Below, one piece after another: positions 8,282-22,264 of a stretch of 32,000 bases of DNA. The notes below the pieces were generated by a model. The model searched no databases, was not told the DNA's origin, and was given only the letters and a program-made list of their open reading frames with translations. The translations under genes and the position numbers were made by a program. Location of the stretch: contig NC_015067.1 in assembly GCF_000196555.1 (NCBI RefSeq), forward strand, positions 240,001 to 272,000, written 5' to 3'. The first letter of the stretch is position 1, and each line of letters opens with the position of its first letter. The DNA comes from Bifidobacterium longum subsp. longum JCM 1217. Lineage in GTDB: Bacteria > Actinomycetota > Actinomycetes > Actinomycetales > Bifidobacteriaceae.

Positions 8282-9816
8282 GGCATCCTCCAGTGGCGGC
8301 CGTCGCGCGCCAGCATTTCGTCGGCCTGTGCCGGACCCCACGTACCGGCGCGGTAGGCCTGCGGCTGGCCAAGCGTGGACCAGAATTGTTCAATCGGATC
8401 GAGGATCTCCCAGCTGAGGTTCACCTCTTCGGTGGTCGGGAACAACGGCGGATCACCGAGCAGCACGTCCAGAATCAGTCGCTCATAGGCTTCCGGCGAG
8501 TTCTCGGTGAAGGAGCGGCCGTAGCTGAAGTCCATGTTCACGTCACGGACCTCCATGGTGGAGCCGCCCGGCACCTTGGCTCCGAAGCGCATGGTGACGC
8601 CCTCGTCGGGCTGCACGCGAATCACGATGGCGTTCTTGCCGAGTTCGCGCACGGCGGTCTGCTCGAACGGCAGATGCGGGGCGCGCTTGAACACCACGGC
8701 GATTTCGGTTACACGCTTGCCGAGGCGCTTGCCGCAACGCAGGTAGAACGGCACGCCAGCCCAGCGGCGGGTGTCGATATCGAGGCGGATGGCGGCGTAC
8801 GTTTCAGTGGTGCTCTTGGGGTCGATGCCTTTTTCCTCCAAGTAGCCGACCACTTCGTGCGAGCCCTGCCAGCCCTTGGCGTACTGGCCGCGCGCGGTGT
8901 TGGCGGCGAGGTCCTTGGGCAGGCGCACGGCGGAAAGCACCTTGGTCTTTTCGGCGGTCAGGTCCTTGGCGGTGAAGCTCACCGGCTCCTCCATGGCGGT
9001 CAGAGCCATGAGCTGAAGCAGGTGGTTCTGGATGACGTCGCGTGCGGCGCCGATGCCGTCGTAATAGCCGGCGCGGCCGCCGATGCCGATGTCCTCGGCC
9101 ATCGTGATCTGCACGTGGTCCACATAGTTGGCGTTCCAGATCGGCTCGTACATGGCGTTGGCGAAACGCAGGGCCAGCAGGTTCTGCACGGTTTCCTTGC
9201 CGAGGTAGTGGTCGATGCGGAACACGGAGCTCGGGTCGAACACTTCGGATACCACGCTGTCGAGTTCCTTGGCGCTGGCCAGATCATGGCCGAACGGCTT
9301 CTCGATGATCACGCGGCGCCATGCGCCCTCGGACGAGCGCGACAGGCCGGAGGCGGCCAGCTGCTTGGCGACCTGTGGGAATGCGCGCGGCGGCACCGAC
9401 ATGTAGAAGGCATGGTTACCCTGCGTGCCGCGGTCGCGGTCAAGCTCCTGCACGGTGGCGCTCAGACGCTCGAAGGCCTCCGGGTCGTCGAACGTACCCT
9501 GCACGAAGCGGATGCCGGCGGCCAGATTGCGCCAAGTCGACTCCTTGAACGGCGTACGGCAATGCGCCTGGACGGCGGCCTTGACGAATTCGATGAACCG
9601 TTCCTGTGTCCAGTCGCGGCGGGCGAAACCGGTCAGACCGAAGCTCGGCGGCAGTAGGCCACGGTTCGCCAGGTCGTAGACGGCTGGCAGTAGTTTCTTT
9701 TGTGCCAGATCGCCCGTGACACCGAAAATGACGAGGCTGCATGGGCCGGCGATACGGGGCAGTCTGAGGTCGCACGAGTCGCGCAGGGGATTGCTCCAAT
9801 TGGGGGATTCACTCAT
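8278..9816 (-). CDS. zwf: Glucose-6-phosphate 1-dehydrogenase
   Basis: LVIFGVTGDLAQKKLLPAVYDL is the NADP-binding motif, RIDHYLGKE is the active-site motif, and there is a conserved C-terminal domain. The ATG at 9816-9814 gives MSESPNWSNPLRD.... The upstream extension to 9945 is Arg-rich and non-homologous. Confidence 0.95.
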   Translation of the reverse strand: MSESPNWSNPLRDSCDLRLPRIAGPCSLVIFGVTGDLAQKKLLPAVYDLANRGLLPPSFGLTGFARRDWTQERFIEFVKAAVQAHCRTPFKESTWRNLAAGIRFVQGTFDDPEAFERLSATVQELDRDRGTQGNHAFYMSVPPRAFPQVAKQLAASGLSRSSEGAWRRVIIEKPFGHDLASAKELDSVVSEVFDPSSVFRIDHYLGKETVQNLLALRFANAMYEPIWNANYVDHVQITMAEDIGIGGRAGYYDGIGAARDVIQNHLLQLMALTAMEEPVSFTAKDLTAEKTKVLSAVRLPKDLAANTARGQYAKGWQGSHEVVGYLEEKGIDPKSTTETYAAIRLDIDTRRWAGVPFYLRCGKRLGKRVTEIAVVFKRAPHLPFEQTAVRELGKNAIVIRVQPDEGVTMRFGAKVPGGSTMEVRDVNMDFSYGRSFTENSPEAYERLILDVLLGDPPLFPTTEEVNLSWEILDPIEQFWSTLGQPQAYRAGTWGPAQADEMLARDGRHWRMP

Positions 9817-9953
9817 AATGTACAAGGGTAGTCGCCGGCGGCTATCTATCGCTAGAGGCGATATGCGATTTGGGCTGCGATTTGGGCCACATTGCGTGTG
9901 CTGTGCCGTGCGTTGGGCCAATCGCGTACGCAAACGTGTACGCAACGCCGTAG

Positions 9954-13745: not shown

Positions 13746-13770
13746 GCGGTTCAGCTTAAGTCGCCGGGTG

Positions 13771-13798
13771 GAATTGTCGGCCTGAGACTGCCGAATTC
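13771..13798. promoter_or_regulatory. Imperfect inverted repeat in the tetR/ftsY divergent region (candidate TetR operator)
   Basis: GAATTGTCGGC-ctgagact-GCCGAATTC, 26 nt upstream of the tetR ATG. The arms match apart from a 2-nt bulge. Confidence 0.3.
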
Positions 13799-13834
13799 GT
13801 AGGGGATTCCATCTGCGGGCTAGACTTGACAGGT

Positions 13835-15112
13835 ATGGATATGAATACTGTGCTCGCCGTTCTTGGCGTGATTGTGGCGGCGGTTATCGTAATCGCCCTG
13901 AGCATCTGGTTGGGCAAGTCCCGCAAGCGCGATTTGGATCGTGCGATGGGCAAGGTTGCCCCCGACAACAAGAAGACCCGCGACGCCAAGGCCGCCGCCG
14001 ACGCTCGGCTGGCCGCCGAAGCCGAGGAAGCTAAGGCTGCGACTGCCGCCGAGCCGGCCAAGTCAGCCGAATCGGCCAAAGCCGAGCCTGCGCCAGCCGC
14101 GCAGGCCGAACCCGAACCGGCAGCTGCGCCCAAGCCCGAGTCCCAACCTGCCTCCAAGCCCACTCCCGCCAAACCTGAAACCCCCGAATCGGTCGGCTCT
14201 CGACTGACCCGACTCAAGGCAAAACTTGCCAAGTCCGGCAACCCGTTCGGCAAGGCCCTGTTCGACATCCTCGCCAAAGACAATCTCTCCGAGGCCGATT
14301 GGGAAGACGTCGAAGACACACTGCTGCTTGCCGACGTCGGTGCGGATGCTTCCGCCCAACTGGTCGATGACCTGAGAACCGACGCCCGCATCACTGGTAA
14401 AGCCGACCCAGCCGAAGTACGCGCCACGCTCAAGGAGAAGCTGCTCGATCTGGTCGGTCGAGATACGGACCGCCGCCTCAATGCCGAAAAGCCGGGTGCC
14501 GCCAAGCCCAGCGTCATCATCATGGTCGGCGTCAACGGCACCGGCAAGACCACCACTGCCGGCAAACTGGCTCGACTGTTCGTGGCCGAAAACAAGCAGG
14601 TCATGATGGGCGCGGCCGACACCTTCCGCGCGGCCGCCGCCGACCAGCTCGAAACCTGGGGCGCACGCGTCAATGTGCCCGTCGTCCGCTCCGACAAGGA
14701 CGGTGCCGACCCGGCATCCGTCGCCTTTGAGGCATCCGCCAAGGCCAAGGAAGCGAACGCGGACGTGCTCATCATCGATACTGCCGGCCGACTGCAGAAC
14801 AAGTCGAACCTGATGGACGAGCTCGGCAAGATTCGCCGTGTTACCGAAAAGAACCTGCCGGTGGATGAAGTGCTGCTTGTGCTCGACGCCACCACCGGCC
14901 AAAACGGCATGGCCCAGGCCAAGGTGTTCGCCGAAGCCATCGGCATTACCGGTGTGGTGCTCTCCAAGCTTGACGGTTCCGCCAAGGGCGGCATCGTGGT
15001 CAGCGTGCAGAAGGAGCTCGGCGTGCCGGTCAAGCTCGTCGGTCTTGGTGAAGGTCCGGACGATTTGGCACCTTTCGATCCCGAAGGTTTCGTGGACGGC
15101 ATTCTCGCGTAG
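13835..15112 (+). CDS. ftsY: Signal recognition particle receptor FtsY
   Basis: An N-terminal TM helix is followed by an Ala/Glu/Lys/Pro-rich acidic domain. The NG domain then follows (VGVNGTGKTTTAGKLA, DTAGRLQNK, SKLDGSAKGG). The start is ambiguous among TTG 13826, ATG 13835 and ATG 13841. Confidence 0.9.
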   Translation: MDMNTVLAVLGVIVAAVIVIALSIWLGKSRKRDLDRAMGKVAPDNKKTRDAKAAADARLAAEAEEAKAATAAEPAKSAESAKAEPAPAAQAEPEPAAAPKPESQPASKPTPAKPETPESVGSRLTRLKAKLAKSGNPFGKALFDILAKDNLSEADWEDVEDTLLLADVGADASAQLVDDLRTDARITGKADPAEVRATLKEKLLDLVGRDTDRRLNAEKPGAAKPSVIIMVGVNGTGKTTTAGKLARLFVAENKQVMMGAADTFRAAAADQLETWGARVNVPVVRSDKDGADPASVAFEASAKAKEANADVLIIDTAGRLQNKSNLMDELGKIRRVTEKNLPVDEVLLVLDATTGQNGMAQAKVFAEAIGITGVVLSKLDGSAKGGIVVSVQKELGVPVKLVGLGEGPDDLAPFDPEGFVDGILA

Positions 15113-15169
15113 ACGGTCGAGTTCTTCTCAGTCTCGCTTTGCTCGACAGCTCCCCTCAGCGAGGGGAGC
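15106..15169. repeat. Hairpin-forming element downstream of ftsY
   Basis: It contains GCTCCCCTC-agc-GAGGGGAGC (15149-15169), preceded by TTCTTCTCAGTCTCGCTTTGCTC. Its reverse complement shares both ends with a 50-nt segment inside murT (22986-23035). Confidence 0.55.
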
Positions 15170-15222
15170 CCTGCGTCCGTCCACGTTGTGGGCGCGGGAA
15201 ACGCCCGCAACGCACCAAACCT

Positions 15223-15257
15223 AGCCCCGAAGCATATTCGAAACATGATTCGGGGCT
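15223..15257 (+). terminator. Terminator-like hairpin in the ftsY-amt spacer
   Basis: Perfect 9-bp stem AGCCCCGAA/TTCGGGGCT with a 17-nt loop, followed only by TTTC, so the U-tract is weak. Confidence 0.4.
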
Positions 15258-15323
15258 TTCCCATATCCGTTGGAATCATGCCGGAATCAGCCCATCCGAT
15301 GCCAACCTAATTGTCAGGTGCGC

Positions 15324-15360: not shown

Positions 15361-15479
15361 GAGACCGGCTTTTACTGACGAACTGTTAGCCCCCACAAGG
15401 GGGACGGCATTGTAGAGACAAAGTCGACGCCGGCCGCGCAAAGCCCCCGGTGCCCTGAACGAAAGAGAGGGAGGTAGAC

Positions 15480-17115
<1,636 letters not shown>

Positions 17116-19083: not shown

Positions 19084-20529
19084 CTACCTCATCCATGCGT
19101 CCGAGCGCACGCGTAGTCCGTTGGACAGACCGCGCCCACCCATGAGCACCACGTTGAACGCGGCCCAGAGTACGGCGGTACGCATCAGGTCGCTCGTCAG
19201 CGCCGGCGTCACCATATTGGCCAGTATGAGTATGAGCGTCACATACACCACGGCGGTCAGCGTGCATGTGACGGCCAGATAGCGGTAGTCGCGCGCGCCG
19301 ATAAGAATGCCGTCGATTGCCATCATCCAGCCTTGCAGTGGGAAGAAGATGCCCATCGTCACCATGCCCACGGCGATCAGCGTCTGAATATGTGGCGTAG
19401 GGGAGAAGAAGTGCCCGGCGAACAGGCCGACTACCGCAAAAGCCGTGCCGATTACCGCGCCGGTGACCAGTCCCGCACGCCCGGTCGCCCGCGTCAGCCG
19501 CCGCGCCTGCTGCACGCTGCCAGCGCCCAGCGCTGTGGCCACCAGCGTCTGGCCGGCGATGCCCACGGAATCCAGCATGTTCATCGCAAAATTCCAAGAG
19601 GAGTTCACGGCCTGAAACCCGGCCAACACGGCAGTACCCATGCGCGCGGCACAGGCGACCGTAGTCACCATGGCCGCACGAATCGCCAATGTGCGAATGA
19701 ACAATGGCAGTCCGTCGCCCCCGGCTGCCGCAATACCGGCCAAACGAGGCCGCAGACTCGCACCATCCGCCCGGGACCACAGAATGGCGGGGATTACCAG
19801 GAACAGCCCCATGAACCACTGAGCTACCAGCGTCGCCACTCCGGAGCCGGCAATGCCCCAATTCAGCACAATAACGAACAACACATCAAGCACCGTGTTC
19901 ACCACCGCGCCGCCCACCGCAGCGATCAGCGTGATACGAACCTTCTGCAATCCTCGGAAAATGCCGTTCGCCGCATATACCATCAGCATGCCTGGCGCAC
20001 CCAGCACGATTGCGCGCGTATAGGTCACGGCTTGTTCCAATACTTCGCCCTGACCGCCCAGTGCCCGGCATAATGGCTCGGCAGCCGCGAACAATCCCAA
20101 TCCCAGTACGGTGCCGATGCTCAAGGCCAGCCACAGGCCATCAATGCCTGCCTGCAGTCCCTCGCGACGACGACCCGCTCCCAGCAGATGTGCCACCTGC
20201 GCAGTGGTCGAGTAGGCCAGGAATATGCATAGTCCGACTGCCGTGAGGATGATGGTGGAGCCGATTGACAGGCCGGCCAACGCCGCATCCCCGATATGGC
20301 CGACGATGGCTGTGTCGATAAGGATGAAGGTCGGTTCGGCGATGAGCTGGCCGAAGGTCGGCAGGGCCAGCGCCATGATCCGGCGGTTGGTGGAGCGGGC
20401 GTCGGTCGGGCCGTTGCTGACGTTTGTGTTTGCGCCGGCATGCGGGGTGCCGAAGCCATCGCGGCGTGTAGTATCGCCGGAACTGGTGGCTTTGGCGTCG
20501 GAAGAGTCTATGGGCACGCTCACACGCAT
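19084..20529 (-). CDS. MATE-family efflux transporter (DinF-like)
   Basis: 12-TM profile with IMALALPTFGQLIAEPTFILIDTAIVGHIG and a second-half repeat. The track ORF extends to 20679 through the DnaA-box cluster. ATG 20529-20527 (MRVSVPIDSS...) is the first plausible start. Confidence 0.85.
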   Translation of the reverse strand: MRVSVPIDSSDAKATSSGDTTRRDGFGTPHAGANTNVSNGPTDARSTNRRIMALALPTFGQLIAEPTFILIDTAIVGHIGDAALAGLSIGSTIILTAVGLCIFLAYSTTAQVAHLLGAGRRREGLQAGIDGLWLALSIGTVLGLGLFAAAEPLCRALGGQGEVLEQAVTYTRAIVLGAPGMLMVYAANGIFRGLQKVRITLIAAVGGAVVNTVLDVLFVIVLNWGIAGSGVATLVAQWFMGLFLVIPAILWSRADGASLRPRLAGIAAAGGDGLPLFIRTLAIRAAMVTTVACAARMGTAVLAGFQAVNSSWNFAMNMLDSVGIAGQTLVATALGAGSVQQARRLTRATGRAGLVTGAVIGTAFAVVGLFAGHFFSPTPHIQTLIAVGMVTMGIFFPLQGWMMAIDGILIGARDYRYLAVTCTLTAVVYVTLILILANMVTPALTSDLMRTAVLWAAFNVVLMGGRGLSNGLRVRSDAWMR

Positions 20530-20576
20530 ATCACGCCTGACTGCGTTGCGCAAGCACCTGTTGTGGGCGCGGAATG

Positions 20577-20680
20577 TTATCCCCAGACTATCCACCAAGT
20601 TATCCCCAGTATGTGGATAACTTAGTGGATTATCCCCAGAATTATCCCCAAAATGTGGATAACTTATTTTTCTATCCACA
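20577..20680. promoter_or_regulatory. Cluster of eight DnaA-box-like 9-mers in the MATE/dnaB divergent intergenic region
   Basis: The eight sites are: TTATCCCCA 20577-85; CTATCCACC 20588-96; TTATCCCCA 20600-08; TGTGGATAA 20612-20 (perfect, reverse); TTATCCCCA 20630-38; TTATCCCCA 20642-50; TGTGGATAA 20654-62 (perfect, reverse); CTATCCACA 20672-80. The consensus is TTATCCACA. Confidence 0.7.
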
Positions 20681-20803
20681 TTTTGCTTTCTGCGTGTCGT
20701 GGCGCTGACTCATAGGTGAATAAGGAATGAACCGATGCGGGCAACCGTTTCGTTTCCATACGATATCGTTCACCTGCCACGCCACATCCTATACTTGGAG
20801 GCT

Positions 20804-22264
20804 ATGCCAGAAGGAAGTGAACACTCGTATCAGAATGGGTTCGGCGGTGGCCTGGATCGTGGCGATCGTGGCGACCGCGCGGGCCGGGGCGGCACGCAGA
20901 CGTCGGCGGCGGCCGGCGACCCGATTTTCGACCGCGTGCCCCCGCATGATGACGACGCGGAAATGGCCGTGCTCGGCGGCATGCTGATGAGTAAGGATGC
21001 CATCGGCGAGGTCTCGCAGACCATTGACGTCACCGATTTCTACCAGCCCAAGCATCAGACGATCTATAACGCGATCATCGATCTGTTTTCCGCCAGTCAG
21101 CCGGTGGACGTGGTGCTCGTGGCCAACCAGCTGTTGGCGGATGGCAACCTCGACAAGGTCGGCGGCGCGGACTATCTGCACAGCCTTGTCGCATCCGTAC
21201 CGACCGCCGCTAATGCCATGTACTACGCGGAGATCGTCCATCAGCGGGCCATTTTGCGCAATGTGATCGCCGCCGGCACCAAAATCGCCCAGCTCGGTTA
21301 TTCCGCCGAGGGATCGCAGGCTGAGGATGTGGTTAACCTCGCCCAGTCCGAGATCTACGAGATGTCGATGGGCAAGGTGCGTCAGGACTATGCCGCCATC
21401 GGCCCGGTGGTCCACGACGCGCTCGACCAGCTGGACAAACTGCAGCAAGGCCTCGTCAACAAGGGCGTGCCGACCGGCTTCCGCGACATCGACGACGTGA
21501 CCCAGGGCCTGCAGCCCGGACAGATGGTCGTCGTCGCAGGACGTCCGGCCATGGGTAAGTCCACGCTCGGCATCGACTTCGCCCGCGCCGCCGCGTTGCA
21601 CCACAACATGACTTCCGTGGTCTTCAGCTTGGAGATGAGCAAGGTGGAGCTCGCTCAGCGTATTATCTCCGCCGAAACCAATATTCCGATGGCCGCCCTG
21701 CGCCGCGCCGACGACATCACCCCCGAACGCTGGAACACCCTGAACCAGTTCTGGACCAAGATGCAGAACGCGCCACTGTTCATTGACGACAGCCCGAACA
21801 TGAGCCTCATGGAGATCCGTGCGAAATGCCGTCGTCTGAAGCAGACCAACGATCTGAAACTCGTAGTCATCGACTACCTGCAGCTGATGACCTCGGGCAA
21901 GGCCGTGGAATCCCGCCAGCAAGAGGTGTCCGAATTCTCCCGTGCCCTGAAGCTCTTGGCCAAGGAACTCGAAGTGCCGGTCGTGGCCCTTTCCCAGCTG
22001 AACCGTGGCCCGGAAATGCGTAACGACAAGAAGCCGCAGCTCTCCGACCTGCGTGAATCCGGCTCAATCGAACAGGACGCCGACGTGGTGTTCCTGGTCC
22101 ACCGCCCTGACTTCTACGACAAGGAAGACCGCCCTGGCGAGGCCGATATCATCATGGCCAAGCACCGTAACGGCCCGACCGAAACCTTCCACCTCGCCTT
22201 CCTCGGTGCCACGTCCAAATTCAAAGACATGCCGCAGGACTACAACGCCAATCAGGGGGTGTGA
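20804..22264 (+). CDS. dnaB: Replicative DNA helicase DnaB
   Basis: N-terminal domain PPHDDDAEMAVLGGMLMSKDAIGEV, Walker A GRPAMGKSTLGIDFA, IDYLQLM, and SQLNRGPE...DLRESGSIEQDADVV. The start is uncertain: ATG 20804 has GGAGG only 2 nt upstream, and ATG 20735 has AAGGAA 7 nt upstream. Confidence 0.9.
   Translation: MPEGSEHSYQNGFGGGLDRGDRGDRAGRGGTQTSAAAGDPIFDRVPPHDDDAEMAVLGGMLMSKDAIGEVSQTIDVTDFYQPKHQTIYNAIIDLFSASQPVDVVLVANQLLADGNLDKVGGADYLHSLVASVPTAANAMYYAEIVHQRAILRNVIAAGTKIAQLGYSAEGSQAEDVVNLAQSEIYEMSMGKVRQDYAAIGPVVHDALDQLDKLQQGLVNKGVPTGFRDIDDVTQGLQPGQMVVVAGRPAMGKSTLGIDFARAAALHHNMTSVVFSLEMSKVELAQRIISAETNIPMAALRRADDITPERWNTLNQFWTKMQNAPLFIDDSPNMSLMEIRAKCRRLKQTNDLKLVVIDYLQLMTSGKAVESRQQEVSEFSRALKLLAKELEVPVVALSQLNRGPEMRNDKKPQLSDLRESGSIEQDADVVFLVHRPDFYDKEDRPGEADIIMAKHRNGPTETFHLAFLGATSKFKDMPQDYNANQGV

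Follow-up and report, generated by a model that had tools for sequence, protein, structure and literature searches.

A conserved array of DnaA-box-type sites between a MATE transporter gene and dnaB in Bifidobacterium longum

Gene neighborhood and layout of the array

The window analyzed in this study is a stretch of 32,000 nucleotides from Bifidobacterium longum, and it is identical base for base to B. longum CP049767.1 across the 9.7 kb compared. The gene order at the locus is ftsY-amtB-glnK-glnD-MATE(-)-array-dnaB-murT-gatD. The two genes flanking the array, identified in the initial annotation as a MATE efflux gene and dnaB, were confirmed by Pfam and NCBIfam (Table 1). The absence of dnaA, dnaN, rpmH and parAB from the 32-kb window was also verified. 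Two minus-strand open reading frames (13756-15279 and 15372-16799) were rejected as genes; they have no Pfam match and are shadows of plus-strand ftsY (SRP54 family) and amtB, which is followed by glnK and glnD. The dnaB start at 20804 is the one chosen by gene callers; annotations of B. longum CP016019.1 and CP049767.1 and of many metagenomes contain the exact product. The record coordinates of the locus, 252 kb in CP016019.1 and about 320 kb before the end in CP049767.1, are only suggestive of its place relative to dnaA.

Eight DnaA-box-like sites lie within the 104 bp from 20577 to 20680. They were reproduced by reading the sequence and by a search with the pattern YTATCCMCM, which has eight matches in the 32-kb window, every one inside the 104 bp. 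In 100 shuffles of the window, the same pattern gave a mean of 1.05 matches and a maximum of 5. The remaining layout claimed by the initial annotation also held: start-to-start steps of 11, 12, 12, 18, 12, 12 and 18 bp, two 25-bp units (20600-20624 and 20642-20666) with 23/25 identity, and distances of 48 bp to the MATE ATG and of 55 or 124 bp to the dnaB start candidates. The local G+C content is low, at 0.38-0.49 vs about 0.60-0.65 in the flanks. Where a cluster is taken as at least three DnaA boxes of the local oriC consensus, the array contributes eight sites, two of them perfect. The flanks of box 4 resemble those of the oriC strong boxes, and this box is likely a high-affinity anchor. 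No Rfam family was matched in 20300-21000. Sites for NrdR, LexA, MtrA and ParB were considered by their consensus sequences and rejected, none being like the boxes.

Table 1 Features of the MATE-dnaB intergenic region and its flanking genes, in window coordinates.
Feature	Coordinates	Strand	Remarks
MATE-family transporter gene, 481 aa	19084..20529 (ATG 20529)	-	Divergent; Pfam/NCBIfam; nearest specific model DinF, below cut-off
Box 1, TTATCCCCA	20577..20585	+	C at position 7; weak-type DnaA box
Box 2, CTATCCACC	20588..20596	+	Two mismatches to TTATCCACA; 2 bp past box 1
Box 3, TTATCCCCA	20600..20608	+	Central weak box of conserved triad
Box 4, perfect TTATCCACA	20612..20620	-	Plus strand reads TGTGGATAA
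Candidate extra weak box, TAATCCACT (read as AGTGGATTA)	20624..20632	-	3 bp past box 4; overlaps box 5
Box 5, TTATCCCCA	20630..20638	+	From YTATCCMCM search
Box 6, TTATCCCCA	20642..20650	+	Lineage-specific; part of 25-bp unit repeating 20600-20624
Box 7, perfect TTATCCACA	20654..20662	-	Plus strand reads TGTGGATAA; 42 bp from box 4
Box 8, CTATCCACA	20672..20680	+	Back-to-back with box 7; T-rich 9-bp spacer between
WhiA-type motif, CGACACGC	20692..20699	-	Plus strand reads GCGTGTCG; twelve bases past box 8
TATACT, candidate -10 element	20790..20795	+	8 nt ahead of dnaB ATG 20804
dnaB, replicative DNA helicase, 486 aa	20804..22264	+	Pfam DnaB and DnaB_C; TIGR00665 above cut-off

Conservation of the array in Bifidobacteriaceae

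Conservation upstream of dnaB in relatives, on which the initial annotation had made its reading depend, was found in 15 of 17 Bifidobacteriaceae loci. The array is missing solely in two loci (L002 and L003), where the region upstream is rearranged. Ten of the 15 array-bearing loci were aligned, and the eight box positions could be aligned over all ten arrays. The TCCCCA core is present at the box 1 position in nine of the ten (the exception is L017), and boxes 1 and 3 have C at position 7, as TCCCCA or ACCCA, in nearly all of them. Box 4 reads TGTGGATAA in seven arrays, with a single-base change in the other three. Box 7 contains an invariant ATGTGGATAAC in 10/10 arrays, followed by T in nine. 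The distance of 42 bp between boxes 4 and 7 is conserved. In the relatives, the box 2 position holds TTATGCACA, TTATCCACT or TTGTCCACT, the box 5 position TTATCCACC, TTTTCCACA or TTATTCACC, and the box 8 position TTATCCACA, TTGTCCACA or TTATTCACA, all three of the latter being known DnaA-box types. The candidate extra weak box is only partially conserved in the family.

The internal architecture of the array is kept although its distance to dnaB spans 124 bp to about 1.7 kb. The distance increases from 124 bp in B. longum to about 300 bp in B. cebidarum and to about 1.1 kb in B. apri. B. callitrichos and Gardnerella have the array and the MATE gene inverted together, in the order array-MATE(+)-dnaB(+), and their arrays lie beyond MATE, about 1.6 kb from dnaB. 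The MATE start codon stays near the box-1 side in both array orientations. In three loci (L004 of B. apri, and L013 and L014), the MATE gene has been lost and the array is in place.

Repeats were observed between the array and dnaB in two of these species. The gap in B. apri (L004, about 9000-9950) carries at least five copies of the palindromic GTGAGGATTGGCTCACA over about 1 kb, which resembles a small repeated or mobile element and seems to have moved the array away from dnaB. B. cebidarum (L001, about 9760-9950) has an insertion of about 170 bp between array and dnaB, with repeated inverted copies of GGCGCTAAGTA...TACTTAGCGCC.

Probable promoter elements of dnaB and the WhiA-type motif

Relative to the dnaB start at 20804, the array spans -227 to -124. 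The initial annotation had stated that the array occupies the whole divergent promoter region; this has to be corrected, as the TATACT hexamer lies outside it. Of the 17 Bifidobacteriaceae loci, 13 have a -10-like hexamer (TATACT in 11, TAGAAT in 2) 6-7 nt ahead of the dnaB start, which is written ATGGC. It also occurs in species without a nearby array, and TATACT is kept in L002 and L003. TATACT is thus a probable -10 element of dnaB's own promoter, separate from the array and beside the start codon. Leaderless genes are known among actinobacteria, and on this basis the dnaB mRNA would be leaderless or nearly so if TATACT is the promoter. Since a consensus scan of 20400-20900 found no sigma-70-type promoter, the promoter positions are taken from conservation and are weak assignments.

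The second element on the dnaB side is a WhiA-type motif. In M. tuberculosis, the WhiA motif consensus is GACACGCC, and WhiA and WhiB2 bind and activate the dnaB promoter (PMC13473873). In Bifidobacteriaceae, CGACACGC beside box 8 is conserved, inverted arrays included. When a GACAC(GCC) motif upstream of a gene is taken as the mark of a WhiA/WhiB-dependent promoter, CGACACGC is a conserved predicted site of this kind. The box-6 position holds a second copy, GACACGCC, in B. subtile, B. asteroides, Bombiscardovia and Gardnerella; in B. longum, the 25-bp duplication has overwritten this copy. Members of the Micrococcaceae have GACACGCC immediately after the inverted box of the triad described below, and across 79 loci the region upstream of dnaB is enriched about 4-fold in GACACG. 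The B. longum locus therefore resembles the WhiA/WhiB2-dependent dnaB promoter of M. tuberculosis in having GACACGC(C) upstream of dnaB, conserved with the array in Bifidobacteriaceae. It differs in being known from the motif alone, at 7/8 bases, and in having a DnaA-type box in place of the second copy.

Conservation across actinomycetes

The same region was compared in 62 other actinomycete loci, from genera that include Cellulomonas, Arthrobacter, Kocuria, Microbacterium, Promicromonospora, Gleimia, Nonomuraea and Mycolicibacterium. In 58 of these, the 600 bp upstream of dnaB hold the densest DnaA-box cluster of the whole locus (roughly 21 kb), and in 53 of them at least three boxes lie within this distance. 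The box density in these other actinomycetes is 8.0 per kb upstream of dnaB vs 0.18 per kb elsewhere. The divergent MATE(-)-dnaB(+) pair is common to many actinomycete orders. Upstream of dnaB, 28 loci from Bifidobacteriales and Micrococcales share a box triad in which TCCCCA does not vary: a direct box, 3 bp, TTnTCCCCA, 3 bp and an inverted box TGTG(G/C)A(T/C)AA. The position immediately upstream of the helicase gene is conserved in relatives (15/17 in the family and 58/62 in other actinomycetes). Judged by these comparisons, the array is the B. longum copy of what appears to be an ancient actinomycete DnaA docking module upstream of dnaB.

Binding of DnaA at this position has been published for mycobacteria. 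In an in vitro pull-down with M. tuberculosis DnaA, Rv0057, upstream of dnaB, was among the five top regions (Hicks et al. 2020, PMC7738170). DnaA ChIP-seq in M. smegmatis gave the strongest peak of the genome at dnaB-rplI, at 225-fold vs 44-fold for oriC, and the M. tuberculosis DnaA I282T variant showed less binding at the dnaB promoter, with dnaB under-expressed (PMC7738170). The initial annotation had offered direct DnaA control of the helicase gene as one option, and this option matches the mycobacterial data. The B. longum array thus corresponds in position to a site at which DnaA binding is proven, and since binding upstream of dnaB is documented in mycobacteria, the existence of the array is no surprise. 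The two sites share the position immediately upstream of the helicase gene, the WhiA-type motif and a box cluster that includes TTGTCCCCA-type variants (Mycolicibacterium, L080), and they belong to one continuous conservation pattern across actinomycetes. They differ in the upstream neighbor, which is rplI/Rv0057 in mycobacteria and the divergent MATE gene in B. longum, and in details of the box order. They also differ in that DnaA binding is proven for M. tuberculosis and M. smegmatis only, and the B. longum array is known from its sequence. In a different phylum, DnaA of Caulobacter crescentus is likewise reported to bind upstream of dnaB (as cited in PMC7738170).

The position 7 variant of the DnaA box

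The sequence TTATCCCCA, with C at position 7 (C7), does not occur among the 47 boxes of the B. bifidum, B. longum and B. asteroides oriC regions, so in bifidobacteria it is a feature of the dnaB-upstream locus. Among the clustered boxes upstream of dnaB in the other actinomycetes, position 7 was substituted by C 17 times and by G or T never; the background had 3 C, 12 G and 7 T. This absence from oriC, with the retention of C7 at boxes 1 and 3 throughout the family and in Micrococcales, would fit the suggestion of the initial annotation that the variant marks a different protein, binding beside DnaA. The form of the sites argues for DnaA itself. The C7 variant in triads retains the DnaA frame (T1, T2, T4, C5, C6, C8 and A9), with extra mismatches at the degenerate position 3 only. 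The clustered C7 boxes upstream of dnaB, including all four in the window, lie 2-3 bp from another box, and cooperative binding of DnaA pairs in E. coli requires 2-3 bp spacing (PMC11317965).

The pairing of weak and consensus boxes was further searched in metagenome contigs with TTNTCCCCA-N3-TGTGSAYAA, which returned 118 loci. Twenty of them adjoin dnaB or MATE, and at least 42 adjoin dnaA, rpmH or dnaN in other, unrelated, mostly low-G+C bacteria. Since it also adjoins these genes elsewhere, the convergent pair is a general DnaA layout. These points, together with the C-only substitution at position 7, make a different protein at the TTATCCCCA sites very improbable. The sites are best read as weak DnaA boxes, but the strict retention of C7 over very long divergence is more than a weak box alone explains.

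Literature searches for the bare 9-mers TTATCCCCA and TTGTCCCCA returned unrelated primer matches only. A lone TTATCCCCA was observed in the bioD-uvrB intergenic region of E. coli (L094, 1331), about 200 bp from the DARS1 core, and may be there by chance.

Relation of the array to oriC

DnaA proteins were searched for with B. bifidum DnaA domain I (PMC13270200), which alone gave fragments only, and with domains III-IV, which reached B. longum DnaA. The B. longum oriC region (L088) has the gene order parB-parA-gidB-jag-yidC-rnpA-rpmH-dnaA-dnaN-recF-dciA-gyrB and shares no gene with the window. It contains three DnaA-box clusters of its own, around parA-gidB, rpmH-dnaA and dnaA-dnaN. Its main box is TTATCCACA, and the seven types of box that occur in it agree exactly with the published set for B. 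longum (PMC2430713). A single contig of B. subtile carries both dnaA (at 105.7 kb) and dnaB (at 531.5 kb), with 424 kb between them. The gene content of the oriC region and the gap in B. subtile uphold the earlier description of the array as a secondary DnaA-box cluster away from oriC.

The array could nevertheless be imagined as the replication origin or as a detached part of oriC, as it is a dense DnaA-box cluster within locally AT-rich DNA, and Lee et al. found the B. longum oriC slightly off the position predicted by genome asymmetry (PMC2430713). The locus is neither beside dnaA/dnaN nor at a skew minimum, and GC skew does not change sign at the array. The claim that a long AT-rich unwinding element is missing proved correct: the lowest G+C over 100 bp is 0.38, it coincides with the boxes themselves, and no separate tract lies beside them. 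With the three clusters at oriC and the distance between dnaA and dnaB in B. subtile, an origin at this site has practically no probability and is rejected.

Several further observations were made on the window and the origin regions. Cumulative GC skew over the window (1-32000) rises to about 10 kb and then falls without tracking gene orientation, in a window too short for the curve to be interpreted. In the parA-gidB intergenic region of B. bifidum (L087, 1383-1398), a perfect parS-type palindrome, TGTTTCACGTGAAACA, lies beside the first oriC DnaA-box cluster. The dnaA gene of this metagenome contig (5093-6672) is split into open reading frames of 147 and 396 aa, and an assembly frameshift is probable. 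A DciA-family gene follows recF near oriC in B. longum (L088, 10625-11095) and B. asteroides (L089, 10561-11058), and bifidobacteria thus appear to use a DciA-type helicase operator for the DnaB encoded beside the array. Another metagenome contig (L173, G+C 0.44) has two DnaA and two DnaN matches in opposite orientation around a pattern match, which points to an origin that was either duplicated in inverted form or misassembled.

Discussion

The array is probably a multi-site DnaA docking platform that couples the expression of dnaB and MATE to DnaA and serves in addition as a DnaA sink. In mycobacteria, and only there, DnaA, WhiA and WhiB2 have been shown to bind upstream of dnaB and to affect its expression; we infer that the same proteins bind the array in Bifidobacterium. 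The consensus boxes 4 and 7 and the near-consensus box 8 would be occupied by DnaA most of the time. The weak TTATCCCCA and CTATCCACC boxes, 2-3 bp away, would be filled cooperatively only when DnaA is abundant or active, and DnaA would thereby form two assemblies in phase, separated by 42 bp (four helical turns). Such a division of labor between strong and weak boxes would tie the expression of the helicase gene to the status of the initiator. Occupancy probably helps the WhiA/WhiB-type dnaB promoter marked by CGACACGC beyond box 8, and it probably impedes transcription of MATE from a promoter that must overlap boxes 1-3. As a by-product, a sizeable share of the cellular DnaA would be held at the array.

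Control of dnaB from the array is not free of difficulty. The distance and the orientation of the array to dnaB are not conserved, which fits poorly with a simple regulator acting close to the dnaB promoter, and the retention of TATACT by dnaB in L002 and L003, which have no array nearby, counts against array-driven control. A role as a sink or in replication control stays in play because of the variable geometry and the large mycobacterial peak. The array could then be primarily a sink that titrates or inactivates DnaA after initiation, its position next to dnaB being incidental to transcription. The models for this are E. coli datA, the B. subtilis clusters and S. coelicolor D78, which belongs to the Streptomyces DnaA-box clusters named H69, H24 and D78. 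Like these, the array is a non-origin cluster of the high-affinity type that could hold DnaA, a few hundred kb or less from oriC. D78 reportedly binds DnaA better than oriC, and its deletion is said to raise the initiation frequency. The content of two consensus and six weaker boxes in 104 bp, the internal architecture that stays constant whatever the distance or orientation of dnaB and persists without MATE, and the M. smegmatis peak, the strongest of its genome and five times that of oriC, all fit a sink. Unlike the array, which is a box cluster and shows nothing comparable, datA requires an IHF site and promotes ATP hydrolysis. We know of no IHF in actinomycetes. The cluster also stays in the dnaB/MATE neighborhood in 73 of 79 loci and is coupled to the WhiA-type motif, and in M. 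tuberculosis the reduced binding of DnaA I282T at this site is linked to lower dnaB expression. A primary sink is accordingly possible but rather unlikely, and one site could serve both as a sink and in transcription.

A role in DnaA reactivation, in the manner of DARS, would require the convergent pair of weak and consensus boxes to force a head-to-head DnaA dimer from which ADP is released. DARS function requires oppositely oriented boxes I and II (PMC6868365). The E. coli DARS1 core reads TTATCCACT-5 bp-TGTGGATAA-3 bp-TGTGTATTA, and box 3, box 4 and the extra site of B. longum read TTATCCCCA-3 bp-TGTGGATAA-3 bp-AGTGGATTA. As in the DARS1/DARS2 core, a weak box converges on a consensus box in the middle, and a second weak box follows 3 bp later in the same orientation. 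However, the first spacer is 3 bp rather than 5 bp, and the third box is conserved only partly in the family. The same convergent pair is common in ordinary rpmH-dnaA and dnaA-promoter regions of other bacteria, which indicates a general binding layout and no DARS signature, and no DnaA nucleotide-cycle factors are known in actinomycetes. DARS-like reactivation is therefore highly unlikely. A broader proposal is that the triad and the array form an actinomycete control locus of the DnaA cycle, an autonomous element that sets the initiation frequency by capturing DnaA or switching its nucleotide state. The weakened TTnTCCCCA box and its convergent consensus box would be the core of this element, and dnaB regulation would be secondary. 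To our knowledge, no DnaA-cycle control element has been defined across actinomycetes, from which Hda, datA and DARS are not known. We regard this proposal as doubtful.

Conclusions

The docking platform proposed here extends the mycobacterial findings, in that the site is one conserved module from Bifidobacterium to Arthrobacter and no mycobacterial peculiarity. Added by this analysis are the fixed internal grammar (the triad, whose TCCCCA weak box is invariant, and two consensus boxes at a distance of 42 bp), the usual pairing with a divergent MATE gene, and the WhiA-type motif that the module carries. The array offers a compact fragment on which the readout of the DnaA level at the helicase gene, and a possible buffering of initiation, may be tested in actinomycetes. 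In bifidobacteria, where replication control is essentially unstudied, it is the obvious first candidate for a DnaA target outside oriC.
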